DNA of 64,000 nt from an uncultured Candidatus Rokubacteria bacterium (GCA_963747235.1 CAVVEU010000039.1:11879-75878); one strand, 5' to 3'. Counted from the first letter of the stretch, positions 8-46,506 are shown. Translations and numbers: made by a program. Notes: a model not told the origin generated them from the sequence alone.

Positions 8-44
8 TGGGGCGCGCACGCCGCAGCGTAGCGGTCCTGTCCCA
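8..44. promoter_or_regulatory. putative enhancer (UAS), tandem palindromes
   Basis: TGGGGC-GCGCAC-GCCGCA (8-25) and CGTAGC-N6-GTCCCA (27-44), 90 and 71 bp upstream of a sigma-54 site. Confidence 0.55.
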
Positions 45-97
45 CTCGCGCGACGCGTTCCGCCCGCCAACATCTCGAATCCTCTGCGATATCCGCT

Positions 98-113
98 TGG
101 CACCTCGCTTGCT
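98..113 (+). promoter_or_regulatory. sigma-54 (-24/-12) promoter
   Basis: TGGCAC-CTCGC-TTGCT, GG-N10-GC spacing, upstream of AGGAGG and the ORF at 164. Confidence 0.85.
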
Positions 114-163
114 CACCAGATCAACGTCGAGATCCAGGCGATGAAGACCGCGACAGGAGGACG

Positions 164-457
164 GTGATGCGAAGCAGCCGGGTTTTCGTGGTGGGAGCGA
201 TCGTGGGGGCCGCCGTGGTGTGGCTGTGGGGCCGGGAGGTGGAGGCCTACGTGGAGGAGAAGACGCGCGGGGTGCGCACGACGGTCGCGGAGGGAGTCCG
301 GGCGGTCGAGGAGACGGCCGGGCAGGTGCTGGACCGCAGCGGTGAGGCCCTGCGTCGGGCCGACGACTTCTTGCAGGACACGAAGGCGCATGTGAGCGAA
401 GCGCTCCGGGCCGGGCAGGAGGCGATCCGCCCGGCACCCGCGGCCAGAGAATCGTAA
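164..457 (+). CDS. small membrane-anchored general stress protein (YtxH-like)
   Basis: N-terminal TM helix then amphipathic helix; AGGAGG RBS. Confidence 0.6.
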   Translation: MMRSSRVFVVGAIVGAAVVWLWGREVEAYVEEKTRGVRTTVAEGVRAVEETAGQVLDRSGEALRRADDFLQDTKAHVSEALRAGQEAIRPAPAARES

Positions 458-475
458 CGAGGGAAGGAGAGGGCC

Positions 476-703
476 ATGAAGCCTGTGACTATCGTCGGTG
501 TCGCCCTGATCGTTCTCGGCGTGCTGGCCTTGGCCTATCAGGGCATCACGTACACGACGCGTGAGCAGATCATCGACCTGGGACCGGTCAAGGCCTCGGT
601 CGACAAGAAGAAGAGCATCCCGCTGCCTCCGATCGTCGGCGCGCTCGCGCTTGCCGGGGGTGTGGTGCTGATCTTCATCGGATCTCGAAAGTCCTCGGCA
701 TGA
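476..703 (+). CDS. small two-TM membrane protein (DUF3185-like)
   Basis: GVALIVLG...IIDLGP...IPLPPIVG pattern; AAGGAG RBS. Confidence 0.7.
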   Translation: MKPVTIVGVALIVLGVLALAYQGITYTTREQIIDLGPVKASVDKKKSIPLPPIVGALALAGGVVLIFIGSRKSSA

Positions 704-749
704 TCATCCTCGGCTCCGTGCGAGACATACGCATCCGGTAGCGCTCCAT

Positions 750-1313
750 GTGGCCCACGTCGTGTTGATCCAGGAGCTGAGCAGCCAGGCGAGCCTGGAC
801 CTGCTGGCCCGCACGCGGCTCGGCAGGCTGGCGTGCAGTCAGGGGGGCCAGCCCTACGTGGTGCCCGTCTATTTCGCGTACGCGGATCATTCGCTCTATG
901 GCTTTGCCACCCTCGGGAAGAAGATCGACTGGATGCGCGCCAACCCCTTGGTTTGTGTCGAGGTGGACGAGGTGGTGAGCCCGCAGCAATGGACGAGCGT
1001 CATCGTCTTCGGTCGTTACGAGGAGCTGCCCGACACGCCGGAATGGCGGAACACGCGCGCATTCGCCCACGAACTGCTGAAGCACCCCGGCATGTGGTGG
1101 GAGCCGGCATACGTGAAGACCATACTCGGAGGGGCCCCGCGCCCGCTCGTGCCGGTCTTCTACCGGATCCGCATTGTTGAGACCACCGGACACCGAGCCA
1201 CTCCGGAGGGGGTGCCGCCGACGGAACGCCGGTCCACGATCGCCTCGGGTGAGGCTGGGTGGCTGGAGCGGCTGCTGCGGCAGGTCCGGGGCGAGCGGCG
1301 GGGCCGGCGGTGA
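750..1313 (+). CDS. pyridoxamine 5'-phosphate oxidase-like flavin-binding protein
   Basis: GRLAC...PYVVP...GKKIDWMRANPLVCVEVD...WTSVIVFGRYEEL. Confidence 0.85.
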   Translation: MAHVVLIQELSSQASLDLLARTRLGRLACSQGGQPYVVPVYFAYADHSLYGFATLGKKIDWMRANPLVCVEVDEVVSPQQWTSVIVFGRYEELPDTPEWRNTRAFAHELLKHPGMWWEPAYVKTILGGAPRPLVPVFYRIRIVETTGHRATPEGVPPTERRSTIASGEAGWLERLLRQVRGERRGRR

Positions 1314-2336: not shown

Positions 2337-2416
2337 TCGAAGGAGGGCGCGATGAGGAAGGAGCACGAGGTGCGCGAAAGCCGTCGTCCCTGGAAATCCG
2401 GCCGGCGTGCCCCACG

Positions 2417-2434
2417 TGTGGCGCGCACGCCTCA
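2417..2434. promoter_or_regulatory. putative enhancer palindrome
   Basis: TGTGGC-GCGCAC-GCCTCA, 107 bp upstream of a sigma-54 site. Confidence 0.5.
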
Positions 2435-2523: not shown

Positions 2524-2539
2524 TGGCACGGACGATGCT
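2524..2539 (+). promoter_or_regulatory. sigma-54 promoter
   Basis: TGGCAC-GGACG-ATGCT with correct GG-N10-GC spacing, intergenic. Confidence 0.7.
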
Positions 2540-3548: not shown

Positions 3549-3929
3549 ATGTACAAGCGCGCACTAGTCCCGCTCGACGGCTCGTCCGTGGCCGAAGCCA
3601 TCATCCCGTTCATCCTGGACATCGCCGGCCCCCGCGACATGGAGGTGGTCCTGCTCCGGGTCGTCGAGCCGATCCCGCCCGTGGTGGCCGAGGGGGCACG
3701 CAATCCGGCCGACGAGATCGTGGCGGCTGCCCGCGAAACCGGTGCCGATCTGATCGCGATGTCCACCCACGGCCGCAGCGGTCTGGACCGACTGGTGTTC
3801 GGTTCTGTCGCGCAGGCCGTGCTGCGCCATGTCGAGATCCCGGTGTTCCTGATGCGCACGACGGAAGCCCAGGTGGCCAAGCGCGTCGCCCGGGCTCCGA
3901 TCGAGAAGCAGGCCGGGAAACGCCCATAG
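3549..3929 (+). CDS. universal stress protein with apparent internal deletion
   Basis: LVPLDGS...ADLIAMSTHGRSGL..GSVAQAVLR; middle helix appears missing. Confidence 0.75.
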   Translation: MYKRALVPLDGSSVAEAIIPFILDIAGPRDMEVVLLRVVEPIPPVVAEGARNPADEIVAAARETGADLIAMSTHGRSGLDRLVFGSVAQAVLRHVEIPVFLMRTTEAQVAKRVARAPIEKQAGKRP

Positions 3930-3945
3930 CACAAGGGGTACGAGC

Positions 3946-4119
3946 ATGGATATGTGCATCTGCGGCCATTCCGACCGGGAGCACGACCAGACGGGCGAAT
4001 GCCGGGCGGCCGGCTGCCGCTGCAAGCACTTCAAGCCGGAGATCGCCCTTGGGGCGCCGCGGCCGCATGGAAGCGCGGGCGCCCCGGCCGTGGTCCACCC
4101 GCCGATCCGAGAGACGGCT
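3946..4119 (+). CDS. small Cys/His-rich putative Zn-binding peptide (3' end uncertain)
   Basis: CICGHSDREH...CRAAGCRCKHF; the frame runs on into an Hsp20 remnant. Confidence 0.4.
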
Positions 4120-4568
4120 ATGACGCGTGGACTGATGCCGTGGACGGGGACCGCTGGTTCGATCGCCTCGGGGAGCTCAACCGGCAGGGCATCGCGTTCG
4201 CCCGGGCGATCCGCGCCAAGGTGACCGCGCTCACGGTCTCGCCGTCGTTCTACGCCTTCGAGGTCGATCCGATCATGGTGGGCTACATTCCGTCGCCGGA
4301 GCAATACGCGACGAGCGCCGCGGCCCGGGCCGAGCAGTATCTCGCGGGGGCGACGGTGGAGGCGGGAATCGCCGGGGTCCCCTGCGAGACCCTGCACGTG
4401 ACGCGGGACCATGTTTACGAGGTGATCGTCGACACCGCCGGCACGAAGGGCTGCGATCTGATCTTCATGGCGTCGCATGGGCGCAAGGGGATCTCAGCGT
4501 TCGTGCTCGGCAGCGAGACCTACAAGGTGCTCAGCCACAGCAAGATCCCCGTGCTGGTCTGCCGGTGA
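4120..4568 (+). pseudogene. chimeric remnant: Hsp20 5' end joined to a USP lacking its N-terminus
   Basis: 4120-4148 matches the hsp20 start at 15744 at 27/29 nt (MTRGLMPWTG); downstream CDLIFMASHGRKG..LGSETYKVLSHSKIPVLVCR is a USP C-terminus. Confidence 0.7.
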
Positions 4569-4569
4569 C

Positions 4570-7855: not shown

Positions 7856-7893
7856 CGGGACTCCGCCGCCTCATCCGGGGAGCCGTCGCCTCA
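7856..7893. promoter_or_regulatory. putative enhancer, tandem palindromes
   Basis: CGGGAC-N6-GCCTCA (7856) and CGGGGA-N6-GCCTCA (7876), 100 and 80 bp upstream of a sigma-54 site. Confidence 0.55.
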
Positions 7894-7955: not shown

Positions 7956-7971
7956 TGGCACCGCCTTTGCT
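7956..7971 (+). promoter_or_regulatory. sigma-54 promoter
   Basis: TGGCAC-CGCCT-TTGCT. Confidence 0.85.
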
Positions 7972-9996: not shown

Positions 9997-10033
9997 CGGG
10001 GACGCCGCGCCCCGCTGGGGTGGCGTCGCCCCA
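9997..10033. promoter_or_regulatory. putative enhancer, tandem palindromes
   Basis: CGGGGA-N6-GCCCCG (9997) and TGGGGT-N6-GCCCCA (10016), 99 and 80 bp upstream of a sigma-54 site. Confidence 0.55.
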
Positions 10034-10095
10034 TCGAACCGGGTGCCCCCGCGGTGTAACCTGTCGGGATCCTGGGGTTCTGATGGTGCGGCTCG

Positions 10096-10111
10096 TGGCA
10101 GCAGAGTTGCA
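10096..10111 (+). promoter_or_regulatory. sigma-54 promoter
   Basis: TGGCAG-CAGAG-TTGCA. Confidence 0.8.
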
Positions 10112-10132: not shown

Positions 10133-10441
10133 ATGGCCATGAACAAGAGCGACCTGGTTCTCGAAGTGGCCCGGGCCGCGGGTCTCACCCGCGAGCTGAG
10201 CGAAGCGGTCGTGACCGCGGTATTCGAGCGGATCACGGAGGCGCTGGTGAGGGCGGAGCGCGTGGAGCTGCGCGGTCTGGGCACGTTCGAGGTGAGGCAG
10301 CGAGCCGCGCACGCCGGCCGGAACCCGAAGACCGGTGCCCCGGTCCAGGTCCCGACCCGGAAGGTCCCGTTCTTCCGGACCGGGAAGGAGCTGCGGGCGA
10401 TCCTGAATCCGCAGGCGGCGCCCGAGAAGGTCCACGCATGA
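10133..10441 (+). CDS. IHF/HU family DNA-binding protein (IHF-beta-like)
   Basis: MNKSDL...VELRGLGTF...GRNPKTG...VPFFRTGKELR. Confidence 0.9.
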   Translation: MAMNKSDLVLEVARAAGLTRELSEAVVTAVFERITEALVRAERVELRGLGTFEVRQRAAHAGRNPKTGAPVQVPTRKVPFFRTGKELRAILNPQAAPEKVHA

Positions 10442-14485: not shown

Positions 14486-14523
14486 TGGGGCCCGAGCGCC
14501 TCAGCTGAGGAGCGAGAGACCCA
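14486..14523. promoter_or_regulatory. putative enhancer, tandem palindromes
   Basis: TGGGGC-N6-GCCTCA (14486) and TGAGGA-N6-GACCCA (14506), 98 and 78 bp upstream of a sigma-54 site. Confidence 0.6.
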
Positions 14524-14583
14524 TACGAGACGTGCGGGGAGTCCTAACCCACCGGTTCTCAACGCGGCGCGGCCACCGGCACC

Positions 14584-14599
14584 TGGCAGGCCGGTTGCA
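14584..14599 (+). promoter_or_regulatory. sigma-54 promoter
   Basis: TGGCAG-GCCGG-TTGCA. Confidence 0.8.
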
Positions 14600-15584: not shown

Positions 15585-15621
15585 TGGGGCGGGCCGGCCA
15601 CACCGGGGCCATCGCGCCTCG
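15585..15621. promoter_or_regulatory. putative enhancer, tandem palindromes
   Basis: TGGGGC-N6-GCCACA (15585) and CGGGGC-N6-GCCTCG (15604), 89 and 70 bp upstream of a sigma-54 site. Confidence 0.6.
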
Positions 15622-15673
15622 ACCATCCCTTGTGTGACGACCGCAAGGCGCTGAATCAGCGCGCGTTCCCGCC

Positions 15674-15689
15674 TGGCACCCGCGATGCA
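15674..15689 (+). promoter_or_regulatory. sigma-54 promoter
   Basis: TGGCAC-CCGCG-ATGCA. Confidence 0.75.
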
Positions 15690-18969: not shown

Positions 18970-21370
18970 GGTCATCAAGTGGTTCCGTGAGATCCGGCTG
19001 GGAGACGTGCCCCTGGTCGGCGGCAAGACGGCGTCCCTCGGTGAGCTCTACGGCGAGCTGGGCGCGGCCGGGGTTCGCGTTCCCGACGGGTTCGCGATCA
19101 CCGCGGACGCGTACCGGGCGCTTCTCGACGGCAGCGGGCTGCGCGACCGGCTCGCCGCCATCCTCGAAGGGGTGACCGGCGAGGACGTGACCGCGCTGGC
19201 CACGGCCGGCGCGGAGCTCCGCCGGCTCGTCGAGTCGGCCCCGCTCCCGGCCGGGCTGGAGGACGCGATCGTCTCCGCCTACCGGACGCTCGCGCGCGAA
19301 GCCGGGGCCGACCAGCCCGCAGTCGCCGTCCGCTCGAGCGCCACCGCGGAGGACCTTCCCCAGGCGAGCTTCGCGGGTCAGCACGAGAGCTTTCTGGGCG
19401 TCCGGGGAGAGACCGCGCTGCTGACCGCGTGCCGGCGCTGCTTCGCCTCGATCTTCACCGATCGCGCTATCGTGTATCGCATCCAGAACGGGTTCGACCA
19501 TCTGAGCGTGTTCCTGTCGGTCGCGGTCCAGAAGATGGTCGCGTGCGACCGGGGCAGCTCGGGCGTCATGTTCACCCTCGACCCCGACAGCGGGTTCCCC
19601 GGCGTGGTCCTCGTCAACGCCGCCTTCGGGCTGGGGGAGGCGGTCGTCCAGGGGCAGCTCGATCCGGACGAGTTCTGGATCTTCAAGCCGACGCTGCGGA
19701 CCGGTCATCACGCCCTGCTGAAGCGGAAGATAGCCCAAAAGACGTGGAAGCTCGTCATGGGAGCCGGCGGGCAGCCCGAGCGGGCTCCGGTGCCCGCGCA
19801 GGCTCAGCGCTCCGCCAGCCTCAGTGACCAGGAGGCGCTGGAGCTCGGCCGCTTCGCGGTCGCCATCGAGGACCACTACTCGCGGCGGGCGGGGCATGTG
19901 GTGGCGATGGACATCGAATGGGCAAAGGATGCCGACGACGGCCGGCTCTACATCCTCCAGGCGCGGCCCGAGACGGTCCATTCCGCCGCGCGCCGGGCCG
20001 TCCTCGAGATCTTCTCGCTGCGGCCGGGCGGGCCGCGGGACCGGCTCGTCAGCGGCGCGGCCATCGGCCAGCGGATCGGGGTAGGGCCGACGCGGCGGCT
20101 GCGCGATCCGCGCGACCTGGAAGCCTTCCAGGCCGGGGACGTGCTCGTGGCGTCCATGACCGATCCCGACTGGGAGCCCATCATGAAGCGCGCGGCCGCG
20201 ATCGTGACCGACCGTGGGGGCCGCACCTGCCACGCCGCCATCGTCAGCCGCGAGCTCGGGGTGCCGTGCGTGGTCGGCACCGGCAACGGGACGGAGCTCC
20301 TCCCCGACGGGCAGCTCGTGACCGTGTCCTGCGCCGAAGGCGAGACCGGGTCGGTCTACGCGGGCGCGCTGTCCGTCGAGCGCCGGCAGGTGGACCTGGC
20401 CGCGATGCCGACGACCGAGACCAAGGTGATGCTCAATGTCGGCAATCCGGGCGAGGCCTTCCGGCTCGCCGCGCTGCCCAACGACGGCGTGGGGCTGGCA
20501 CGCATCGAGTTCATCATCGCGAGCTTCGTGCGCGCGCATCCGCTCGCGCTGCTCCACCCGGATCGGGTCCGCGATCCGGCCGCGCGGGCGGAGATCGACG
20601 CGCTGACGGCCGGGTATGCGGATCGCGGGGAATACTTCGTCGAGCGGCTGGCCGAAGGCGTGGCGACGATCGCGGCGGCCTTTCACCCGAAGGACGTGAT
20701 CGTCCGCCTCTCGGATTTCAAGTCCAGCGAGTACGCGGGGCTCGTGGGCGGTCGGGACTTCGAGCCCGAGGAGGGCAATCCCATGCTCGGCTTCCGGGGC
20801 GCGTTCCGCTATGCGCACCCGCGCTACCGGGACGCGTTCGAGCTCGAGTGCCGGGCCCTGCGCCGGGTCCGCGAGCAGATGGGCCTCTCCAATGTGAAGC
20901 TCATGATCCCGTTCTGCCGGACCCCGGCCGAGGGTCGGCGCGTGCTCGATCTGCTGGCCGCCAACGGGCTCGTGCGCGGCGTGAACGGCCTCGAGGTCTA
21001 CGTCATGGCCGAGATTCCCGCCAACGCGATCCTGGTCGACGAGTTCGCGGCCCTCTTCGACGGCTTCTCGATCGGCTCCAACGATCTCACCCAGCTCGTG
21101 CTCGGGGTGGATCGGGACTCCGAGCTGGTCGCGCCCGAGTTCGACGAGCGCAACCCGGCGGTGCTCAGCATGATCGGCACGATCATCGACGGCGCGCGAC
21201 GCGCCGGACGCAAGGTCGGGATCTGCGGCCAGGCCCCGAGCGACTATCCCGAGATGGTCCGGTTCCTCGTGGAGAAGGGGATCACGAGCATCTCGCTGAA
21301 CCCGGACGCGATCGTGCGCGGTCTCGAGGCCGTCGCGGCGGCGGAGGCCGCGCGTCAGGCCTTGCGGTAG
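18962..21370 (+). CDS. ppsA: phosphoenolpyruvate synthase
   Basis: [22 protein letters not shown] phospho-His motif, [19 protein letters not shown]. Confidence 0.95.
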
Positions 21371-22461
21371 CGCATCGCTTCCTCGACGCGGGCCCGCGCC
21401 ATGCGGGTGGCGGCCTCGCGCGGAAGCAGCCGGCCCGCGCGAGCGTGCTCGAGCGTCTCGCGGGTGTTGGCGCGGATGCGCTCCTCGATGGTCGCGAAGG
21501 CCTGCGCCTGGGTACCGCCGTGATATTCGATCGCGGCGCAGATGACCCCGCCCGCGTTCGCGATGAAATCGGGCACGCTCAGGATGCGGTGGGCGTGCAT
21601 CCATTCTTCGGCCGCCTCGGTGGCCGGGATGTTCGCGCCCTGGATGACCAGCCGGGCCTGGAGGCTGCTCAGGTTGTCCGCGGTGAGGGTGTCCGGTCGC
21701 GCGGCGGGAATCCAGATCTCGCACGGGACGCCGATCAGCGCGTCGCGGCCGATCGCCCGGCCGCCGGAGAAGGCGCTCAGCGGTCGCCCGGCCCGCTTGT
21801 GGGCGATCAGCGCGTCGAGGGGGAGCCCCGCCGGGTCGTGAACGGCCCCCCGGCTGTCGGAGACGGCGACCACCCGGCTCCCGCGCGCGGCCAGGAACCG
21901 GGCCGCGTGCTGCCCCACGGCCCCGAAGCCCTCGATCGCGACGCGCGCCCCGGCCAGGCCGATCCCCGCCTCCGGCGCAGCGACCTCGGCCGCGATCGCG
22001 ACCCCCCAGCCGGTGGCCCCGATCTCGTCGAGGGGGATGCCGCCGAGCACGCGCGGCAGCCCGACGGCCCGGCCGATCTCGTCCTTGATCCACGCCATGC
22101 AGCGCTCGTCGGTGCCCATGTCGGGACCGGGAATGTAGTCGGTGAGCGAGCGGATTGCCCGCGCGAAGGCCCGGGTCAGGCGCTCCTTGTCTGCCGGGGC
22201 GCCGGCCGGATCGGCGACGATGCCGGCCTTGCCTCCGCCGTGAGCCAGACCGGCGGCCGCGTTCTTCAAGGTCATGGCCCGGGCGAGGCGCGAGACCTCC
22301 TCGACCGTGACGTCCGGAGCCATGCGGACCCCACCGATGGCCGGCCCGCACGCCACGTTGTCGATGACGACCACCGCCTCGAGGCCGACGCGGGGGTCGC
22401 GCAGCAGCACGACGGTGCCGGGTCCCAGCGCATCTCCGCTTCCGCGCGCCACGAGGGGCAT
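21355..22461 (-). CDS. Glu/Leu/Phe/Val dehydrogenase
   Basis: GPAIGGVR, MTLK, GGGKAG, GPDMGT, GFGAVG, PDFIANAGGV. Confidence 0.9.
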   Translation of the reverse strand: MPLVARGSGDALGPGTVVLLRDPRVGLEAVVVIDNVACGPAIGGVRMAPDVTVEEVSRLARAMTLKNAAAGLAHGGGKAGIVADPAGAPADKERLTRAFARAIRSLTDYIPGPDMGTDERCMAWIKDEIGRAVGLPRVLGGIPLDEIGATGWGVAIAAEVAAPEAGIGLAGARVAIEGFGAVGQHAARFLAARGSRVVAVSDSRGAVHDPAGLPLDALIAHKRAGRPLSAFSGGRAIGRDALIGVPCEIWIPAARPDTLTADNLSSLQARLVIQGANIPATEAAEEWMHAHRILSVPDFIANAGGVICAAIEYHGGTQAQAFATIEERIRANTRETLEHARAGRLLPREAATRMARARVEEAMRYRKA

Positions 22462-22475
22462 GGTCGGCGTGGCGG

Positions 22476-23015
22476 TCAGAGCGGCTTGACGAGGAATCGG
22501 GCCCGACGGTTCCGGGCCCAGCACGCCTCGCTGTGCTCGATGCAGACCGGCCGCTCCCGGCCGTACGAGATCGCCACCATCCGATCGGCGGGGATGCCGT
22601 GCTCGATTAGGTAGTTCCTCGCGGCCGCCGCCCGGAGATCGCCGAGGCCGAGGTTGTAGTCGTCGGTACCCCGCTCGTCGGCGTGCCCCTCGATCAGGAC
22701 CAGGCCGCCGGGATTCGCCCGGATCCACACCGCGTTCTCGTCGAGGATCGGCGTATCCTTGGGGCGGATCGTGTAGGCGTCATAGTCGAAATAGATGTCG
22801 GCCAGCCGCGGAACCGGCACGAATTGCTCGGGCGGTGGCGGCAGGCCCGGCGCGGATGGCGCGTCGGCATCGGGCGGCTCGATGGCGGCCACCGTCGTGG
22901 ATACCTCGAGGTCGCGCGGGGTGCCGACACGGTCGGACGGCGCCTTCGCCGCCGTCTGGCACCCGGCCAGGAAGATGAGCACGATCAGCGGAAGCAGTGG
23001 ACGGAACGTATGCAT
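22476..23015 (-). CDS. OmpA/Pal-family peptidoglycan-associated lipoprotein
   Basis: lipobox LAGC; IYFDYD, IEGHADERG..YN..LG..RA, SYG.ERP, NRR. Confidence 0.88.
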   Translation of the reverse strand: MHTFRPLLPLIVLIFLAGCQTAAKAPSDRVGTPRDLEVSTTVAAIEPPDADAPSAPGLPPPPEQFVPVPRLADIYFDYDAYTIRPKDTPILDENAVWIRANPGGLVLIEGHADERGTDDYNLGLGDLRAAAARNYLIEHGIPADRMVAISYGRERPVCIEHSEACWARNRRARFLVKPL

Positions 23016-23117
23016 GACGATCGGGAAGTGCAAGGGGGGTGCCGGTCTGAAAAGTCGTACCGGGACGCCACTTGCGTCCGCCCCGGGGCTCCCGCCCGGA
23101 CGGAATCCCGACGACAG

Positions 23118-23135
23118 TGGGGCGCCGGTGTCCCG
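23118..23135. promoter_or_regulatory. putative enhancer palindrome
   Basis: TGGGGC-GCCGGT-GTCCCG, 69 bp upstream of a sigma-54 site. Confidence 0.45.
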
Positions 23136-23186: not shown

Positions 23187-23202
23187 TGGCACCCGGCTTG
23201 CT
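23187..23202 (+). promoter_or_regulatory. sigma-54 promoter
   Basis: TGGCAC-CCGGC-TTGCT. Confidence 0.85.
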
Positions 23203-23215
23203 CTCAGCGCCTGAC

Positions 23216-29583: not shown

Positions 29584-29601
29584 TGGGGCGCGACGGCCCC
29601 A
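29584..29601. promoter_or_regulatory. putative enhancer, perfect palindrome
   Basis: TGGGGC-GCGACG-GCCCCA, 69 bp upstream of a sigma-54 site. Confidence 0.65.
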
Positions 29602-29623: not shown

Positions 29624-29636
29624 TAAGTGGTTGATT
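29624..29636 (-). promoter_or_regulatory. IHF binding site
   Basis: AATCAACCACTTA is a perfect WATCAANNNNTTR match, lying between the enhancer and the sigma-54 site. Confidence 0.75.
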
Positions 29637-29652: not shown

Positions 29653-29668
29653 TGGCACTCCCGTTGCA
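29653..29668 (+). promoter_or_regulatory. sigma-54 promoter
   Basis: TGGCAC-TCCCG-TTGCA. Confidence 0.88.
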
Positions 29669-29994: not shown

Positions 29995-31200
29995 GTGAGC
30001 GCGCGGTCGGCGCGCCCGATGCTCGGCCTGGCCGGCCTGCTCCTGCTCGTCGGATGCGGGAGCGAGCGTGCCGCGGAGGTGCCGGGAGAGCGGCCCGCGC
30101 CGGTGAGCGGCGTCCGGGTGGAGGCGGTGAGGCCGGCCGCCATCCGGGACGCCGTGGAGGTTGCGGGCACCGTCCGGACCAGGACCCGGATGGTTATCGC
30201 CAGCAAGGTGCAGGGCTACGTCCGGGAGGTGCGGGCGCGCCAGGGCGATCACGTCGAGCACGGCCGGGTCCTGGTGACGGTGGACGAGCGCGAGCTCGCC
30301 GCGCGCGCCGACCGCGCGCGGGCCGCCCTCGCGGAAGCCGAGATGAGCCTCGATGAAGTGAGGCGGACACTGGAAGAGGCCGAGGCCTCGCTCCGCTCCG
30401 CCGCGGCGGAGCGCGCCTACGCCGAGGCGACGGCGAGCCGATACCGCCAGCTGTGGGAGCGCGAGCTGGTCAGCGCGCAGGACTACGAGGCCGTCGAGGC
30501 CAGGCGCAAGAGCACGGCCGCGGCCGTCGAGCAGGCCGAGGCGCGGATCCACTCGGTTCGCGCGCGCGAGAAGCAGATGAGCTATCGGATCGACGCGGCC
30601 GCGGCCGAGCTTCGGGCGGCCGAGATCGCGCTGGGCGAGACGCGTATCACGGCGCCCGCCACCGGCGTGGTGGTGGATCGTCGCGTAGAGCCGGGGGACC
30701 TGGCGATGCCCGGGCAGCCACTGCTCGTCCTCGACGACCCGCGGGCGTACCGGCTCGAAGCCGAGGTCGGTGAATCGGCCGTGGGCAGCGTGCGGTTGGG
30801 CCAGAGGGTCCCGGTCGTGCTCGATTCGCTCGATCGCACTCTCGAAGGCCGTGTGGTCGAGATCATCCCGACCGCCGATCCGTCCAGCCGGACGGTGACG
30901 GTCAAGCTGGACCTCCCGGTCGCCCCGGGATTGCGCTCGGGTCTGTTCGGCCGCGCTCGGTTCCCGGCCGGGGAGCGCCAGGTGCTCGTGGTGCCGATCT
31001 CGGCTCTGATCGAGCGGGGACAGCTCAGTGCCGTGTACGTGGTGGATGATCAGGGTATCGCCCGGCTCCGGCTGGTCACCGCAGGCGTGCGCCACGCCGA
31101 CCGCGTCGAGATCCTTTCGGGGCTCGATGCCCACGAGCGCGTCGTGGTGGAGGGTGCCTCGCGGGTGAGCGACGGTTCGCGGGTGGCAGCCGGGCCGTGA
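29995..31200 (+). CDS. RND efflux membrane fusion protein (lipoprotein)
   Basis: LVGC lipobox, lipoyl half-motifs, long hairpin, ITAP.TGVV, ADPSSRT. Confidence 0.9.
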
Positions 31201-34200
31201 CCGCCCCGGTCGGCTTCGCGGGCCGCATGGCCCGGACGTTCATCGACTCCAAGCTGACGCCGCTCGTCGTGCTGGCCTCGCTCCTGCTGGGCCTCTTCGC
31301 GATGCTGGCCACGCCGCGCGAGGAGGAGCCGCAGATCGTGGTGCCGATGACGGACGTGTTCGTCGAGATGCCGGGGGCCGGCGCTCAAGGAGGTCGAGGA
31401 GCGCGTCACCATCCCGCTGGAGAAGAAGCTGAGGGAGATTCCCGGGGTCGAGTACGTCTACTCGACCAGCCAGCCCGGGCCAGCGCTGGCCATCGTGCGC
31501 TTCAAGGTCGGCGAGGACGAAGAGCACAGCATCGTCAAGCTCTACAACAAGATCTGGGCCAACTTCGACCTGATCCCGCCGGGCGCCTCGACAGCCCCTC
31601 GTCAAGCCGCGCTCGATCGACGACGTGCCGATCCTCGCCCTGACCCTGTGGAGCGACCGCGTGGATCGCGTACACGCTGCGGCGGATCGCGGCGCAGCTC
31701 GACGACCAGATCAAGGACATCACCGACGTCGCCGAGACCCGGCTCATCGGCGGCGCAGCGACGCCAGGTGCGCGTGCCTGCTCGACCGCGCGCCTGGCGG
31801 CCTACCGACTGGCGCCGGGCGGCCGTGGCTGGCGGCGCTACGGCGAGGCCAACCGCGAGCTGCGGGCCGGGAGCGCTTCGAGCCGCGGCAACCGGGAGTA
31901 TCTCGTGGACGCCGCGAGTCTTCCTGGACGGAGCCAGAGCGACGTCGGGCCGGGTGGTCGTCGGGCGTCACGCGGACGGGCGACCGGTGTACCTGCGGGA
32001 TGTGGCGCCGCATCGATGGACGGGCCGGAGGAGCCGCGCTCGTACGTCTTCTTCGGCGTCGGCGCGGCGGCCCACACCGCGGCCGCGCAGGGCCACATGG
32101 CCCAGGGGCTGGGTGCCCGGCCGGTCGGCCAGGACTACCCGGCCGTCACCATCTCGGTGGCCAAGCGCAAGGGCACGAACGCCATCGTGATCGCCGAGCA
32201 AGGTGCTGGCAAAAGTGCGAGTCGCTGAAGGGCGTGCCTGATTCCCCGCCGACGTGCAGGTGTCACGGTGACCCGCAACTACGGCGAGACGGCCCAGGGA
32301 GAAGTCCAACGAGCTGCTCATGCACCTGTTCCTGGCGACGGTCTCGGTGACCATCCTGATCGCGCTCTTCCTGGGCTGGCGCGCCGCCGTCGTGGTCCTG
32401 TTCGCCGATCCCGGTCACCCTGGCGCTGACCCTCCTGATCTACTACCTGTACGGCTACACCCTCAACCGCGTCACCCTCTTCGCCCTGATCTTCTCCATC
32501 GGCATCCTGGTGGACGACGCCATCGTGGTGGTCGAGAACATCCCCCGCCACTTCCACCTGCCGGACAACCACGGGCGGCCGCTGCGTCCGGGTGGCGGTC
32601 GAGGCGGTGGACGAGGTCGGCAACCCCACCATCCTGGCCACCTTCGCCGTGATCGCCGCGATCCTGCCCATGGCCTTCGTCGGCGGCCTGATGGGCCCCT
32701 ACATGCGCCCGATCCCGGTCGGCGCCTCCGTGGCCATGCTCTTCTCGCTCTTCATCGCCTTCATCGTCTCCCCCTGGGCCGCCTACCGCATGCTGAAGGG
32801 CGCGCAGCCGCGGCAGCACGGCCAGCGAGGAGCACGGAGGACTGGACCACCCGGCTCTACCGCCGGCTCATGACGCCGCTGATCCACTCGACTGGAAGCG
32901 CCGCTGGCTCTTCCTGGGCGGGCGTCGTCCTGCTGCTGCTGGCATCCGTGCTCGCTGGTCTATTTCAAGCTGGTGCGCGTCAAGATGCTCCCCTTCGACA
33001 ACAAGAGCGAGCTGCAGGTGATCGTGGACATGCCGGAGGGCACCACGCTGGAGCAGACGGCGCGCGTGACGCCGCGAGATCGGGCGAGCCCTGGCACGGC
33101 GCCGCGAGGTGACCGATCTACCAGCTCTACGTCGGCACCGCGCGCCCTACAACTTCAACGGCCTGGTGCGCCACTACTTCCTGCGTGCGCAGGGCTCCAA
33201 CCTGGCCGACATCCAGGTCAACCTGCTGCCCAAGGACGAGCGCGAGCGACCAGAGCCACGCCATCGCCAGGCGCGTCGCGGCCCGGTATTCAAGCGATCG
33301 CCGGACCGGTACGGCGCCCGGGTCAAGGTGGCGGAGGTCCCGCCGGGACCGCCGGTGCTGCAGACCCTGGTGGCCGAGGTGTACGGCGCCGGACCACGAC
33401 CGCGCAGCTCGACGCTCGCGCGCCGAATCCAGGACGTCTTCGAGCAGAACGCCCGGCGTGGTGGACGTGGACTGGTACGTGGAAGATCCCCAGCCCGGCG
33501 TACCGCTTCGTCCGTCGACAAGGAGAAGGCGGCGCTGCTCGGGCATCTCCGCCGAGCAGATGGTCCGGAACCCTGCGCATCGCCTTGGCCGGAGCGAGCC
33601 CGGCCTGGCGCACCTCCCGGCGGAGAAGGAAGACGTGCCGATCTTCGTGCGCCTGCCCCGCGACCAGCGTCAGCGGAGTGGACGCGCTCGCCGGACTCCG
33701 CGCTCAAGGGCGGCGAGCGGCGCGCTGGTGCCGCTCGCCGAGCTGGCGCGGGTGGAGGCCACCGCCGAGCCGCCGCTCGTCTACCGGAAGAACCTCAAGC
33801 GCGTCGTCTACGTCACCGGCGACGTGGCGGGGCAGGAGGAGAGCCCGGTCTACGCCATCCTCCGGATGAACCGGGAGCTGGACGCCGTGCGCCTGCCCGA
33901 CGGCCGCCGCATTCCCCGGTACGTCGGCCAGCCAGCCGTTCCTCACCGAGCACGCTCGCCATGAAGTGGGACGGGGAGTGGCAGGTCACCTACGAGGTGT
34001 TCCGCGACCTGGGGCTCGCCTTCGGCGCGGTCATGGTGCTGATCTACATCCTGGTGGTGGGCTGGTTCCGCTCGTTCCGGCACCCCGCTCGTGATCATGG
34101 CGCCGATCCCGCTCACCCTGGTCGGGATCCTGCCCGCCCACGGGCTGCTCGGCGCCTTCTTCACCGCGACGTCGATGATCGGCTTCATCGCCGGGCGCCG

Positions 34201-34472
34201 GCATCATCGTGCGAAACTCCATCATCCTGGTGGACTTCATCGAGCTCCGCAGGGCCCAGGGGATGCCGCTGGACGAGGCCGTCGTGGACGCCGGCGCGGT
34301 ACGCTTCCGTCCGATGCTGCTCACCGCGGCCGCGGTGGTGGTGGGCGCCTCGGTGATCCTGTTCGACCCGATCTTCCAGGGCCTGGCCGTGTCGCTCATG
34401 GCGGGCGAGGTGGCCTCGACCCTGCTGTCCCGCATGGCCGTGCCGGTGCTCTACTACATGGCCGAGAAGTGA
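31197..34472 (+). CDS. RND (AcrB/CusA family) permease with numerous frameshifts
   Basis: [55 protein letters not shown] spread over several frames. Confidence 0.85.
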
Positions 34473-34941: not shown

Positions 34942-35370
34942 ATGGGGCGCTACACGTTTCTCGAGGACGTGGCCCTGGCCGACTGCGCCGTCGAGATCGA
35001 GGGGCGGAGCCTCGACGATCTCTTCGAGACGGCCGCGGCCGCGATCGCGCGCCTCATGGTGGACCCGGCCACGCTGACGATCACGGTCGAGCGCGCGATC
35101 ACCCTGGAGGCCTCCGAGCTCGACATGCTGCTCTACGACTGGCTGTCCGAGATGATCTTTCTCAAGGACCGGGACAGCCAGGTCTTCCCGCACGCCCGGG
35201 TGCGGGTGACCGGGGACGGTCCCTACCGGCTTGCCGCCGACGTCCACGGCGGTACCATCGATCCCGGGCGCACCGCGCTGGGCGCCGATCCGAAGGCGGT
35301 CACGCTGCACCAGTTCGCGCTCGAGCCGGTGGACGGCGGCTGGCGCGCCCGGGTCGTCATCGACATCTAG
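34942..35370 (+). CDS. archease
   Basis: N-terminal EDVALAD, LLYDWLSE, KAVTLHQF, C-terminal IDI; directly upstream of rtcB. Confidence 0.88.
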   Translation: MGRYTFLEDVALADCAVEIEGRSLDDLFETAAAAIARLMVDPATLTITVERAITLEASELDMLLYDWLSEMIFLKDRDSQVFPHARVRVTGDGPYRLAADVHGGTIDPGRTALGADPKAVTLHQFALEPVDGGWRARVVIDI

Positions 35371-35377
35371 GGAGAGC

Positions 35378-36847
35378 ATGACGATCACCGAGTCGCTGCG
35401 CGGGGCGGTTCGACGAGTCGACGACTGCATCTGGGAGATCCCGCCGACCGCGAAGCCCGGCATGCTCGTCCCGGCGCGCCTGTACGCCTCCGGGCCGCTG
35501 CTCGAGCAGATGGACGACGGCGTGTTCGAGCAGGTGACCAACGTGGCCTGCCTGCCCGGCATCGTCCGCGCGTCGCTCTGCATGCCGGACGGGCACTGGG
35601 GGTACGGCTTCCCGATCGGCGGCGTCGCCGCCTTTCGCGCCGACTCGGGCGTGATCTCGCCGGGCGGCATCGGCTTCGACATCAACTGCGGGATGCGGCT
35701 CATCCGCACGGACCTCAGGGAAGACGAGGTGCGGCCCCGTCTGCCGGAGCTGATCGGGGCGCTGTTCGGCTCGGTGCCGGCGGGGGTCGGCGCGAAGGGC
35801 TTCGTGCGCCTCTCCGGCTCCGAGTTCAAGAAGGTCATGGTGGAAGGGGCCGGCTGGTGCGTGGCCCGTGGCTACGCGTGGCCCGAGGACCTGGCGCACA
35901 TCGAGGGCCGCGGCTGCCTGCCCGGCGCCGATCCCGAGGCGGTGAGCGCCAGAGCCCTGGAGCGAGGGATGGAGCAGCTCGGGACGCTGGGCTCCGGCAA
36001 CCACTACCTGGAGATCCAGGTGGTGCGACCGGGCGCCATCCACGACGAGCGCGTGGCGCGCGTGCTCGGCGTGGACGGCCCCGGCCAGGTCTTCGTCATG
36101 CTCCACTGCGGCTCGCGCGGGTTCGGGCATCAGGTCGGCACCGACTACCTCAAGATCTTCGACCGGGCGATGCCGCAGTACGGCATCAGCGTGCGGGATC
36201 GCGAGCTGGCGTGCGCGCCCTTCCGGTCGAAGGAGGGCCAGGCCTACTTCGGCGCCATGACCGCCGCGGCCAACACCGCGTTCGCCAATCGCCAGGTGAT
36301 CACCCACCGGATCCGGGAGGTGTTCTCCAAGGTCTTCGGGCGCGACGCGCGCGCGCTGGGGCTCAGCGTGGTCTACGACGTCTGCCACAACACCGCCAAG
36401 CTCGAGCGCCACAAGGTGGACGGCCGGGAGATGGAGCTGGTCGTGCACCGCAAGGGCGCCACGCGCGCCTTCGGCCCGGGCGCGCCCGACGTGCCCGCCG
36501 ACTACCGGGAGATCGGCCAGCCGGTGATCATCGGCGGCTCGATGGAGACGGGGTCCGCGCTCCTGGTCGGGACGACGCAGGCCATGGCCGAGACCTGGGG
36601 GTCGACGGCTCACGGCGCCGGCCGCACCATGTCGCGGGCGCAGGCCAAGCGGCAGGTCGGGGGGGAGACCCTGATCCAGGACATGGCGGAGCGCGGGATC
36701 ATCGTGCGGGCGGCGTCCAAGTCCGGGGTGGCCGAGGAAGCCGGGTTTGCCTACAAGGACCTCACCGCGGTGGTGGACACGCTCCACCGGCTCGACATCT
36801 CGCGACGGGTCGTCTCGCTCACGCCGATCGGGAATATCAAGGGCTGA
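35378..36847 (+). CDS. rtcB: RNA-splicing/repair ligase RtcB
   Basis: MPDGHWGYGFPIG, DINCG, GSGNHYLE, HCGSRG, HN, HRKGAT, HGAGR, EEAG.AYK. Confidence 0.95.
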   Translation: MTITESLRGAVRRVDDCIWEIPPTAKPGMLVPARLYASGPLLEQMDDGVFEQVTNVACLPGIVRASLCMPDGHWGYGFPIGGVAAFRADSGVISPGGIGFDINCGMRLIRTDLREDEVRPRLPELIGALFGSVPAGVGAKGFVRLSGSEFKKVMVEGAGWCVARGYAWPEDLAHIEGRGCLPGADPEAVSARALERGMEQLGTLGSGNHYLEIQVVRPGAIHDERVARVLGVDGPGQVFVMLHCGSRGFGHQVGTDYLKIFDRAMPQYGISVRDRELACAPFRSKEGQAYFGAMTAAANTAFANRQVITHRIREVFSKVFGRDARALGLSVVYDVCHNTAKLERHKVDGREMELVVHRKGATRAFGPGAPDVPADYREIGQPVIIGGSMETGSALLVGTTQAMAETWGSTAHGAGRTMSRAQAKRQVGGETLIQDMAERGIIVRAASKSGVAEEAGFAYKDLTAVVDTLHRLDISRRVVSLTPIGNIKG

Positions 36848-36855
36848 GCGGTCGG

Positions 36856-36892
36856 CGAGGCGCGCGCGCCCCAACCGGGAGCGGCTGCCCCA
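36856..36892. promoter_or_regulatory. putative enhancer, tandem palindromes
   Basis: CGAGGC-N6-GCCCCA (36856) and CCGGGA-N6-GCCCCA (36875), 99 and 80 bp upstream of a sigma-54 site. Confidence 0.55.
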
Positions 36893-36954
36893 GCCAGTCC
36901 GACGCGCGCCCGGCCAACCCTGCGTTTTTGCTCGCGCACACAGGCAGAGCCCCG

Positions 36955-36970
36955 TGGCACTTGCCTTGCA
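36955..36970 (+). promoter_or_regulatory. sigma-54 promoter
   Basis: TGGCAC-TTGCC-TTGCA. Confidence 0.85.
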
Positions 36971-39250: not shown

Positions 39251-40361
39251 GTGGCCCGCCCGCGACACATCGCCGTCGTGACCGCGGGCGGCGACTGCCC
39301 CGGCATGAACGCGGCCCTCCGGGCCGTCGTCCGGGCGGCGGTGCACCGGCACGGCATGCGGGTCACCGGCTTCCTCGACGGCTTCGCGGGCCTCCTCGCG
39401 GACCGATCCCGGCCGCTTGGATTCGACGAGGTCTCCGGCATCGTCGCGCAGGGCGGGCACCATCCTCGGCGCCTCGAACCGCGACGATCCGTTTCGCGTG
39501 CCGGTCGACCGGCCGGGCGAGCGCGCCTACGAGGACCGCTCCGACGTGGTGCTGAGGACGCTGACGCGGCACGGCATCGAGGGGCTGCTGGTCATCGGCG
39601 GTGACGGCAGCTTGACGATCGCCCGGCGGCTCGAGTCCAAGGGCGTCGCCGTCGTCGGGATCCCCAAGACCATCGACAACGACGTCGGCGGCACCGACGT
39701 GTCCCTCGGCTTCGACTCCGCCCTGACGGTGGCCACCGAGGCCGTGGACCGGCTGCACACCACGGCGGCGTCTCACCACCGGGTCATGGTGGTGGAGGTG
39801 ATGGGGCGAAATGCCGGATGGATCGCGCTCGAGGCGGGGCTGGCCGGCGGCGGAGACGTCATCCTGATCCCCGAGATCCCGTTTCGCTACGAGGCGGTCG
39901 CGGCCGGGATCCTCGAGCGCGCTCGGCGCGGGCGCCGGTTCTCGATCGTCGTGGTGGCCGAGGGAGTCGTCGTGCCCGGGCGGGGGCCCGTGGTTCGCCA
40001 GATCGTCGGGGACAGCCCGGATCCCGTGCGGCTCGGCGGCGTGGGCGTGGTGCTGGCGAACGCCCTCGAGGGCCTCGTCCCGTTCGAGGTGCGCTACGTG
40101 GTGCTCGGCCACGTCCAGCGAGGTGGCTCGCCCACTCCGTTCGACCGGATCCTGGCGACCCGCTTCGGCGCCGCGGCGGTCGCCGCCCTGGTGGACGGGG
40201 AGTCGGGCCGCATGGTCGCGCTCCGGGGCGCCCGGATCGAGCGCGTCCCGCTGGCGGATGTCCTCTCGCGGCCGAATCGGGTGGATCCGCAGGGTGAGCG
40301 CGTGGTCGCCGCCCGCGGCATCGGCACGATCTTCGGGGACGAGACCGGAACGGAGGCATGA
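39251..40361 (+). CDS. pfkA: 6-phosphofructokinase (frameshift near 39452)
   Basis: GGDCPGMN, GGDGS, PKTIDND, EVMGR, LGHVQRGG. Confidence 0.9.
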
Positions 40362-44196: not shown

Positions 44197-44205
44197 GCCG
44201 CGAGA

Positions 44206-46359
44206 TCAGCCCCCCGGGGCTGTCGACCGGGAAGGTCAGCGTGAACGTGCTGCCCTTGCCGACCTCGGAGCGGACGTCCAGCGTCCCGTGGTGATCGTGC
44301 ACGATGCCGTGGCTGATCGACAGACCGAGCCCGGTCCCTTCCGGCTTCGTGGTGAAGAACGGATCGAAGATCTTCGGCAGGAGGCTCGGCGGGAATCCCG
44401 GAGCCGGTATCGCGCACCGCGAGGCGCACCGAGCGGGCGGCGGCCAGATGGCTGGTCTCGATCGTGATCTCGCCGCCCTCGGGCATGGAGCCCCGGGCGT
44501 TGGTGAGCAGGTTGAGCAGCACCTGCCCGATCGCGTTGGCGTCGGCCACGATGGTGGGCATCGTCTCGTCCAGCTTCGTCGTGACCTGGACCCGCGCCCG
44601 GCTCATGTCCTTGCGGACGAGCTGGACGATCTCCTCCGTGACCTGGTTCAGGTTCACGGGGCCGCGGGTGCCGGACGACTGGCGGGCGAAGGACAGGAGC
44701 CCCTGGGTGATCGTGGCCACCCGCCGGGCGTGGCGCAGGATGACCTCGAGGTCCTTCCGCACCTCGTCGGGGAGCCCCACTTCGTCGGCCTCGAGCATCA
44801 TGACCTCGACACGCGAGGTGATGATGCCGATGGGATTGTTGATCTCGTGGGCGATGCCGGCCGACAGGGTGCCCAGCGCGGCCAGCTTGTCGGCCTGGCG
44901 GGCGGCCTTCTGGAACGCCACCCGCTCGCTGATGTCGGTGACGAAGGCGATGGCGCGCACGCCCTCGTCGGTCTCGACGTAGCTCAGGCTCACCTCCACC
45001 GGGAACTCGGTTCCGTCCTTCTTGAGCGCGGCCAGGTCGAGCCCCCGGCCCATCGAGCGGATCCGCGGCGCCGCCATGTAGGTGCCGCGATGGGCGACGT
45101 GCCGCTCGCGGAGCGGGGCCGGGATGAGGGCCTCGACCGGCTGCCCGATCAGCTCGGCCTGCGTGTAGCCGAACATCGCCTCGGCCCTGGCGTTGACCAG
45201 CACGATGCGGCCCGCCGCATCGGTGACCACGATGCTCTCGGTCACGGAGGCGAGGAGCGCCCGGGACGTGGCCTCGCTGCGGCGCAGCGACTCCTCGGCC
45301 ACCCGGCGCGCGGAGACGTCGCGCGCCACGATGGACGCGCCCACCGACCTGGTCGGCGTCGTCGCGGATCGGCGAGATCGTCATGAACACGTGGATCCGC
45401 CGCCCCGACCCCGTCATCTGCTCGGCTTCGATCCGCTCGACCCGCTGCTCCCGCAGGACGCGGGTCAGGCTGGCCGCGACCTCGTCGTTGTGCCGGTCCG
45501 GCCCCAGGATGTCGATCGGCAGGCCGGTGACCTCCTCTCCCCGATGCTCGTAGAGCCGCTCCGCGCCCGCATTCCAGGTGAGCACGCGTCCGTCGGGCCC
45601 CAGCCCGATGATCGCGTCGTCGGACGACTGGACGATCGACGTGAGCAGCGCGCTCGTCTGCTCGTACTCGACCACCTGGCTCCGCAGCGCGTCCCGGGTC
45701 GCCCGGATCTCGCCCGCGCGCCGTCGATACTCGACGAGGACGACCACGAGCAGGCCGAGCGTCACCGCGGCCAGCCCGGCCAGCCCGAGGAACACGCGGT
45801 GAGCCTGCCGCGCATACCGGGTCGATTGCTCGGCCTGGATCTGGCGCTCCTCCGCCTTCATGGTGGCGACGGCGGAGCGAATCTGCTCCATGAGCCGCAG
45901 GCCGCGTCCGGTCAGCAGGCGCTGGACCGCGACGTCGGTACGCCGCTCGCGGCCGAGCTGGACCGTGTCGCGCAGCTCGCCGAGCTTGTCCGTGACGAGC
46001 GGCTCCAGGGTGTCGACGTGCCGCCGCTGGCGCACATTCCCCTCGGTCAAGCCGCGGAGGGTCCGCAGGTGGCTCGCCGCGGAGTCGAACGCGGTGAGAT
46101 ACGGCGCGAGATAGCGCTCGTCGCCGGTCATCAGGAAGCCGCGCTGTCCGGTCTCGGCATCGGTCACCGCCGAGAGGACTCCATCCAGCTCACCGAGGAC
46201 CTGGCCGGTCTGACGGGCCGTCTGGTACTGTTCGGTGAGATCGCGCGCGCCGAGCGCGATGACCGCAATGGCCAGCACGAGGGCGGCGGCCACGGAGAAC
46301 GCAACGCTCGTGCGGTTGTGGAGAAGCCAGGGGAGCACGCCGCTGGGCGGTTGAGCCAT
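44206..46359 (-). CDS. sensor histidine kinase CHASE3-PAS-PAS-HisKA-HATPase (NtrB-like; frameshifts)
   Basis: AETGQRGF (CHASE3), two PAS domains, [27 protein letters not shown]; stop position inferred. Confidence 0.85.
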
Positions 46360-46401
46360 GCCGGCTGCATTGTCGGCCAGGAGCGCGGTGCCTTCAAGGT
46401 C

Positions 46402-46438
46402 TGGGGCGGCGGCGCCTCAGCGGGGCACGGCTGCCGCG
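46402..46438. promoter_or_regulatory. putative enhancer, tandem palindromes
   Basis: TGGGGC-N6-GCCTCA (46402) and CGGGGC-N6-GCCGCG (46421), 89 and 70 bp upstream of a sigma-54 site. Confidence 0.6.
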
Positions 46439-46461
46439 CGAGGCGGCCGGGTCCAGTGCTG

Positions 46462-46474
46462 TAACGGGTTGAAT
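46462..46474 (-). promoter_or_regulatory. IHF-like site
   Basis: ATTCAACCCGTTA, one mismatch to WATCAANNNNTTR; same distance from the promoter as the 29624 site. Confidence 0.6.
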
Positions 46475-46490
46475 GTATGGCAATTCTAGC

Positions 46491-46506
46491 TGGCACCTCG
46501 GTTGCA
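46491..46506 (+). promoter_or_regulatory. sigma-54 promoter
   Basis: TGGCAC-CTCGG-TTGCA. Confidence 0.88.

Follow-up and report, generated by a model that had tools for sequence, protein, structure and literature searches.

The island and its sigma-54 promoters

The DNA analysed here is a 64-kb stretch of the genome of an uncultured Candidatus Rokubacteria bacterium (G000:C39:11879-75878, hereafter the window; 71% GC), and our subject is a gene island whose sigma-54 promoters share an upstream palindrome, the putative binding site of a single enhancer-binding protein. G000 designates the source genome, other G numbers (G001, G013, etc.) the genomes of relatives, C numbers contigs and L numbers loci. 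Domain calls with Pfam and NCBIfam on selected open reading frames (ORFs), out of 258, gave eight Usp and seven CBS Pfam matches in the window. Other predicted targets in the window encode BON and Hsp20 proteins, isoaspartyl methyltransferase, PEP synthase, phosphofructokinase (PFK), ADH, acyl-CoA ligases, a Mg-type P-ATPase, archease-RtcB, a DksA-like protein, a formate/nitrite channel, NrfHA and a haem-copper oxidase with a short subunit II, which we infer to be of B type. Upstream of the window lie genes for an HPF-like protein, an Rv2629-like hibernation factor (below cut-off) and GroEL.

An earlier note on this DNA had placed ten sigma-54 promoters in the window, all on the + strand and intergenic (boxes 1 to 10 in Table 1). 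Each was recovered at its position with the strict pattern TGGCA(C/G)-N5-(T/A)TGC(A/T), with GG-N10-GC spacing, which yields ten matches on the + strand of the window and none on the - strand. Only 0.105 matches on average, and one at most, were obtained in 200 codon-block shuffles of the window, and the rest of G000 holds 0.31 strict boxes per 64 kb (49 genome-wide, of which 11 on C39). The gene for the sigma factor itself, rpoN, on whose presence the claim depended, exists in a single copy (C8:726117, E 4.5e-62). The intergenic location needs a qualification: boxes 7956 and 46491 fall inside mechanically over-extended ORFs, yet upstream of likely start codons. On these sequence grounds, the ten promoters are almost certainly real.

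A phased palindrome and an IHF-like site upstream of the boxes

All ten boxes are preceded by a palindrome, formerly described as YGRGGC-N6-GYCYCA. We scored it with a matrix built from 147 sites, all from other genomes, the window sites being excluded to avoid circularity. The matrix consensus, (T/C)G(G/A)GGC-N6-GCC(C/T)C(A/G) (18 bp, 13.8 bits), has conserved arms and a free 6-bp spacer; the palindrome itself thus stands, and its last base is A or G rather than always A. With this relatives-only matrix, the ten window sites score 15.0-20.3 bits, chance matches being expected about 0.001 times per 85-bp stretch at 13 bits. Outside C39, 35 of the 38 strict boxes in G000 score less than 6 bits; two of the remaining three are regulon promoters and one reaches 10.8 bits. 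The matrix scores thus confine the motif to these promoters. Palindromes at 4050, 37891, 62619 and 63701 have no box near them and were treated as chance occurrences.

The geometry of the sites is equally regular. The 17 palindrome-to-box offsets of the earlier note were all reproduced, as were the tandem pairs, with a spacing of 19-20 bp, of seven promoters (at box 98, the second copy is weak, with about 5 bits), and box 2524 has an eighth pair, at offsets 127/107. The reported periodicity of about 10 bp is significant when the best site of each promoter is taken (Rayleigh R 0.85 at period 10, p 1e-4; R 0.72, p 0.003 at period 10.5), and nine further G000 promoters are similarly phased (R 0.71-0.76, p 0.003-0.007). 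Island loci from nine relatives provided 119 sigma-54 boxes, 100 of which carry a site of at least 8 bits; their offsets cluster near 60, 70, 80, 90, 100 and 110 bp, with R ~0.6 for periods of 10.2-10.5, and most pairs (55 of 71) are spaced by 19 or 20 bp. Many of these promoters are orthologous, so that the counts are not independent. Several enhancers are common to two divergent boxes; one such box, the divergent box of Table 1, was not in the earlier note. Behind it, on the - strand (21355-23020), lie genes for a Pal/OmpA-like lipoprotein (identified by eye) and a glutamate-dehydrogenase-like protein.

Integration host factor (IHF) recognises the consensus YAA-N4-TTGATW, and IHF-assisted looping at sigma-54 promoters is textbook knowledge. 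A match to this consensus, also absent from the earlier note, lies between enhancer and box and is perfect at window position 29624. Where the near enhancer is at 66-73 bp, 43 of 57 promoters have an IHF-like site with at most three mismatches at -28 to -30, versus 2 of 35 control boxes. When the enhancer is at 77-83 bp, a match at -39 to -41 is no better associated in relatives than in controls (5 of 29 promoters versus 5 of 35). The island also contains its own IHF/HU-family gene (Table 1), and four of its five homologues in the island loci of relatives are the first gene behind an enhancer promoter.

Some of these promoters stand unusually close to their genes. Behind box 7, a GTG start at 23216 lies about 3 nt past the predicted transcription start, and altogether 23 of 155 enhancer promoters are followed, 28-30 nt from the first T of the box, by a start codon whose frame looks coding, i.e. 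some 2-4 nt past the predicted transcription start, with a Shine-Dalgarno-like stretch mostly missing (window 23187-23218, G000:C39:4713, L038, L047, L051, L062, L155 and others). The close start is kept across relatives for the HPF-like and HAD genes. Such transcripts, that of box 7 included, are probably leaderless and driven by sigma-54.

Table 1. Promoters and regulatory genes of the island (window coordinates, unless a contig is named).
Feature	Position	Strand	Enhancers and IHF-like sites	Genes and remarks
Box 1	98..113	+	enhancers 8-25, weak 27-44; IHF-like site 68-80	small membrane proteins, pyridoxamine-phosphate-oxidase-family gene, acetate-CoA ligase fragment
Box 2	2524..2539	+	enhancers 2417-2434, weaker 2397-2414	triple-BON protein, Usp genes
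Box 3	7956..7971	+	enhancers 7856-7873, 7876-7893	CBS protein, M50 peptidase-CBS
Box 4	10096..10111	+	enhancers 9997-10014, 10016-10033; weak IHF-like site 10057-10069	IHF/HU-family gene, CBS, L,D-transpeptidase, M15 peptidase
Box 5	14584..14599	+	enhancers 14486-14503, 14506-14523; weak IHF-like site 14545-14557	CBS, Usp
Box 6	15674..15689	+	enhancers 15585-15602, 15604-15621; IHF-like site 15644-15656	Hsp20, isoaspartyl methyltransferase, MacAB-like ABC transporter, PEP synthase
Divergent box	23029..23044	-	enhancer 23118, common with box 7, offset 91	weaker box
Box 7	23187..23202	+	single enhancer 23118-23135	HAD hydrolase, Mg-type P-ATPase
Box 8	29653..29668	+	perfect enhancer 29584-29601; IHF-consensus site 29624-29636, 0 mismatches	RND efflux pieces, YgaP-like gene, archease, RtcB
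Box 9	36955..36970	+	enhancers 36856-36873, 36875-36892; weak IHF-like site 36915-36927	small secreted protein, CBS, DksA-like, cytochrome c/Usp, PFK, ADH
Box 10	46491..46506	+	enhancers 46402-46419, 46421-46438; IHF-like site 46462-46474	Usp, CBS, ADP-forming acyl-CoA ligase, two Usp, haem-copper oxidase II + I, NrfH, NrfA
Enhancer promoters upstream of the window	C31:144746, C39:4713, C39:11609, C39:7241			C39:7241 weak
IHF/HU-family DNA-bending protein	10139..10441	+		first gene of box 4; best NCBIfam model IHF beta, below cut-off
Candidate kinase	44204..46359	-		CHASE3-PAS-PAS-HisKA-HATPase; divergent from box 10
Candidate activator	G000:C31:143248-144649			REC-AAA+-HTH_8; outside the window, upstream, near the end of C31

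A candidate activator at the head of the island

Among the 27 Sigma54_activat matches in G000, one gene on contig C31 stands out. Its product has all the features of the NtrC family, namely a REC domain with Asp54, Walker A and B motifs, GAFTGA and an HTH_8 helix-turn-helix (HTH) domain. An enhancer pair follows 6 bp past its stop codon and precedes the box at C31:144746; ahead of the gene stands a second pair, phased with a divergent box that is very weak (0.8 bits). No high-scoring enhancer promoter adjoins any other of the Sigma54_activat loci listed. The order activator gene-enhancer-box recurs behind most family-f1 orthologues for which downstream DNA was examined. One P-loop gene is divided between the end of C31 and the beginning of C39, which are collinear in G013 (one base apart), G009 and G019; the activator gene therefore heads the island, which is longer than the ~55 kb previously proposed and starts on the adjacent contig.

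The AAA+ domains of the orthologues form a single clade (38 of 150 sequences, support 0.998), which, among these 150 sequences, contains genomes of this phylum only. The activator scores below the cut-off of each of the best 25 of the 92 matching NCBIfam models, the best being AtoC (471 versus 714), and could not be assigned to a named subfamily (NtrC, AtoC, ZraR, NtrX, GlrR, LuxO and others) among them. The closest of the named matches listed in a scan for its relatives is from Candidatus Rokubacteria (73%). The 120 HTH homologues listed in a search are all close, and the organisms given are Rokuibacteriota or Methylomirabilota, with one labelled Nitrosotalea; an ESM Atlas search returned generic Fis HTH clusters only, and weak HTH matches occur in 9 of 50 genomes of other phyla. 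One of these nine, labelled Candidatus Brocadia (G229, 41% GC), carries a distant activator with a similar recognition helix. Near that gene, a matching palindrome lies 80 bp before a sigma-54 box (L209, G229:C233:10310-10404), a single case, as none of 40 other genomes of the same family has an enhancer-box of this type.

Presence and absence across genomes connect this activator with the motif. The activator HTH was detected in 109 of 200 genomes of the phylum. In the 145 genomes of the window's order, to which the comparison was restricted (55 genomes of other orders being left out), at least four enhancer-promoter matches were found in 69 of 85 HTH-positive versus 5 of 60 HTH-negative genomes, with medians of six and zero enhancer-box matches, respectively; a reversed-pattern control gave a mean of 0.9 matches per genome. 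As kin are not independent, the fairer figure is the within-genus one: of the 14 genera with both states, 13 have more matches in HTH-positive genomes. It is very likely, on this comparative evidence, that the candidate activator binds the palindrome. The earlier proposal of one enhancer-binding protein governing a single sigma-54 regulon gains support from rpoN, from the specificity of the motif, its conserved phase and spacing, and from a named candidate that co-occurs with it.

A candidate sensor kinase with a haem-like PAS domain

The gene divergent from box 10 encodes a histidine kinase (Table 1), homologues of which are located directly before the activator gene in G002 (71% identical), G021, G022, G024, G025, G026, G027, G028 and L073, the last being a locus of a named Rokubacteria genome; the next-best G000 kinase is only ~30-35% identical. 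This kinase is quite probably the partner of the activator. Its last PAS domain (44919-45278), adjacent to the kinase core, has as best solved relatives FG214 (E 2e-15), FixL (2e-14) and DosP (7e-9). The proximal His is present, and His156, His159 and Met172 (FG214 numbering) are kept, a residue pattern that makes it likely that this domain binds haem. The full-length kinase reaches 113 bits against the FixL NCBIfam model, whose cut-off is 850. Strong matches to the last PAS (E <1e-48) occur in 12 genomes of the genus, including G000, and 11 of these carry the activator or the motif, G005 having neither. Oxygen or redox state is the signal that these features favour, with some reservation.

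Predicted content and extent of the regulon

We infer that the regulon takes in 13 or more island operons and a few others located elsewhere. Its downstream limit was sought with a sigma-70 and terminator scan of positions 45000-64000, which revealed no clear break behind box 10. The oxidase gene of G034 has an enhancer promoter 173 bp upstream and is followed by the formate/nitrite transporter and nrfHA. The last 6 kb of the window (58001-64000) hold a cluster with a multihaem cytochrome, a Rieske protein and cytochrome b, a 96.6% identical copy of which is present at G000:C42:2699-8689, reflecting either a paralogue or strain mixing. No enhancer promoter was found for this cluster in the window, and it may be outside the regulon. 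In one soil RNA run, contigs cover the Usp genes behind the first promoter; contigs inform neither starts nor levels. The read sets searched for this strain shared at best a fraction of 0.39 of its words.

Outside the island, an enhancer pair and a strong box precede a gene for an ethylbenzene-dehydrogenase-type haem b protein (PF09459) at G000:C24:727209 (L002), and a similar promoter stretch is present in G015. At G000:C31:118244, one enhancer-like site lies 68 bp before a weaker sigma-54 box, upstream of a gene that we take to be kdpA from its N-terminus; this promoter may be a distant regulon member or a chance occurrence. Within the window, archease stands beside RtcB in a bacterial stress operon (34942-36847). 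Several window genes are fragmented or truncated (acetate-CoA ligase, 1347-2336; Usp, 3549-4568; AcrB, 31200-34470; PFK, 39300-40360), in line with frequent single-base assembly errors.

Proposed mechanism and alternatives

Taken together, these data make it likely that a single two-component system runs the whole island as one sigma-54 regulon. Under low oxygen or a redox change, sensed through its haem-type PAS, the kinase would phosphorylate Asp54 of the activator. Activator dimers would then bind the 18-bp palindrome, as adjacency and co-occurrence suggest, and sites 19-20 bp apart would set two dimers on one face of the DNA, favouring assembly of the AAA+ ring. At the IHF-like site, 29-30 bp upstream of the -24 element, a bend would allow the activator to reach the sigma-54 polymerase; the enhancer offsets follow steps of ~10 bp, and two divergent promoters often have one enhancer in common. 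The output would be a survival programme resembling DosR and lxa, with Usp, CBS, Hsp20, GroEL, hibernation factors, RNA and protein repair, enzymes of substrate-level ATP formation, the haem-copper oxidase and NrfHA, and including the system's own DNA-bending protein.

Several observations weigh against this interpretation. Five HTH-negative genomes (G020, G171, G177, G186, G205) have 6-15 matches and G018 is likewise motif-rich, 10 of the 85 HTH-positive genomes have two matches or fewer, and in other orders, where the link is weak, the HTH is present in 24 of 55 genomes, with few enhancer-box matches; family f13 has the HTH in 13 of 19 genomes, with no more than three matches in any. G059 has the island together with five matches at a longer gap, whereas G081, a pMMO-bearing genome of the same class, keeps kinase and activator with neither island nor matches; this pair (L175-L176), which adjoins tRNA and thrS genes, may be orphaned or rewired. 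A one-turn shift of the IHF site with enhancer distance, seen in three window promoters, is unsupported in relatives and was abandoned. In G000, the activator gene is split by one extra base near C31:144370 and the kinase gene is broken by two frameshifts. The last PAS has Gly at the distal His175 of FG214 and Leu at the distal Arg of FixL (presumably R220). Finally, the activator-adjacent kinases of G021, G022, G024, G027, G028 and L073 are of a membrane-PAS type that lacks the haem His, and a reading in terms of oxygen alone is weakened by this.

These six kinases are the main argument for a scenario with the same regulator and motif and another signal, such as general energy, envelope or stationary-phase stress, the haem-like PAS being incidental. 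The many generic targets (chaperones, L,D-transpeptidase, efflux, RtcB), the position of the oxidase and nrfHA 4-9 kb behind box 10 in G000 and the pair kept by G081 without the island also fit. We nevertheless consider this scenario unlikely, if still to be reckoned with: the sole close kinase in G000 has a FixL/FG214-like PAS, all but one of the 12 genomes of the genus with a strong match to it carry activator or motif, the oxidase of G034 has its enhancer promoter immediately upstream, and gene sets matching the island are hypoxia-induced in Burkholderia and mycobacteria (PMC3721108, PMC11876180). It is improbable that another activator, or a co-regulator of Crp/Fnr type, binds the palindrome and that the adjacent activator is a mere island member. 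There are some 20 activators in G000, the presence-absence test covered the candidate alone, and six motif-rich genomes have no match to its HTH; these exceptions are, however, incomplete assemblies, activator gene, enhancer pair and box keep their arrangement in relatives, the within-genus contrasts favour the candidate, and the activator of G229, in its single case, pairs a similar recognition helix with a matching palindrome.

Equally doubtful is that the system is decaying in this strain, with activator and kinase as true pseudogenes and the promoters as relics. The frameshifts in both regulatory genes, several broken target genes and the want of a read set of this strain could be read in this way, but split genes also occur outside the island, three further activators of G000 among them, boxes and enhancers stay close to consensus at all ten promoters, and relatives at least 90% identical are intact. 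The activator is intact in G001, and most of the orthologues retrieved consist of one open frame; at the frameshift spot, contigs from two soil runs have one base fewer. Intact orthologues, soil contigs and the other split activators make an assembly error the likelier cause in the activator; the kinase is one open frame in G013, and in both regulatory genes the frameshifts are probably of this kind. Last, the genome is GC-rich (71%) and several sites lie close behind a stop codon, as would chance inverted repeats or the terminator stems of preceding genes. This explanation is hardly credible, given that the motif is missing at 35 of 38 other sigma-54 boxes, that the arms are conserved around a variable spacer with phased offsets, and that the reversed pattern is so rare.

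We thus retain a single sigma-54 regulon under one two-component system as our interpretation. More speculatively, and as something rather less likely than not, we envisage a DosR-like dormancy programme across this abundant, uncultured soil phylum, wired via a haem-PAS kinase directly to a sigma-54 activator, with an unusually large regulon, positive feedback through an IHF-like protein and about one in seven operons (including that of a hibernation factor) leaderless. Rokubacteria are widespread in soil and uncultured; with a named kinase, activator, site and set of targets, their low-oxygen response can be put to the test in E. coli and through soil metatranscriptomes. As a switch of a textbook kind, the system holds limited surprise.

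Comparison with known systems

A close parallel in regulatory architecture is NmpRSTU of Myxococcus xanthus, which shares with the island an NtrC-like activator, paired enhancers, sigma-54 promoters, haem-based kinase input and a hypoxia response, the last two being predictions here (PMC11841059). NmpR targets likewise include CBS, Usp, P-type ATPase and haem-copper oxidase genes, and signalling genes lie within the regulon, as here. However, NmpR binds GCGCA-N5-TGCGC at sites mostly 14-15 bp apart in seven promoters, and its sensor is a protoglobin kinase, NmpU, in a multi-step relay (PMC11841059), whereas we find (T/C)GRGGC-N6-GCCYC(A/G) at 19-20 bp start to start, a PAS-type sensor and at least 13 clustered operons. 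The one protoglobin of G000 is a stand-alone ORF at C27:8951, outside the island. Identity with NmpR was rejected on motif and sensor type.

In gene content, the island resembles the lxa locus of Burkholderia cenocepacia, a co-regulated island of ~50 kb with one motif at 17 intergenic points, which includes six Usp genes, alpha-crystallin, phospholipid-binding proteins, a cation ATPase and a sugar kinase (PMC3721108). There, the motif is Fnr/Anr-like (TGA-N6-TCA) and the candidate regulators belong to the Crp family, a role of sigma-54 not being mentioned in the accessible part of that paper (PMC3721108). The mycobacterial DosRS regulon offers similar parallels: Usp, alpha-crystallin, phosphofructokinase, cation ATPase and pyridoxamine-phosphate-oxidase-family genes, and, with the Rv2629-family homologue (below cut-off) upstream of the window, a hibernation factor (PMC11876180, PMC3721108). 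Of the gene set common to DosR and lxa comparisons, we found Usp, Hsp20, CBS, PFK, P-ATPase and hibernation factors in the island. The scanned ORFs of the island include no regulator of DosR or Fnr type, a search that did not extend to the rest of the genome, and the enhancer motif differs from TGA-N6-TCA. DosR is a NarL/LuxR-type regulator that acts with sigma-70-type polymerase under haem-GAF kinases; here, an AAA+ activator would act with sigma-54. Sigma-54 would thus be a third wiring for genes otherwise known to be controlled by DosR or by Fnr-type regulators, suggesting that the survival genes persist while their master regulator is replaced.

FixL, DosP and FG214 are the closest solved relatives of the kinase's last PAS, with the proximal His and the His159 and Met172 positions of FG214 kept (bioRxiv 10.64898/2026.03.15.711900). 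The output differs, as it would be a sigma-54 activator here, not FixJ or a fused HTH, and the distal His/Arg is missing. The activator shares its domain order, an enhancer within ~100 bp and a regulator gene beside a target promoter with NtrC, AtoC, ZraR and DctD; in Desulfovibrio, activator regulons mostly comprise 1-4 operons, the largest having 12, compared with at least 13 clustered operons here (PMC4641369). A survey of sigma-54 regulons reports enrichment of Usp and CBS in Planctomycetia and does not name this phylum (PMC12316311). No regulon description for Rokubacteria or Methylomirabilota was found in the searchable literature, which excludes subscription journals, and the half-sites have no match in the text and supplements of PMC4641369 and PMC3333781, motif logos in figures not being covered. 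The motif, which the earlier note had called apparently undescribed, thus has no published match in this literature, nor do the regulator and the regulon size, figure logos apart. In sum, the mechanism is classical, and the apparently new parts are the motif, the regulator clade, the layout of the IHF-like site and the DosR-like output placed under sigma-54.

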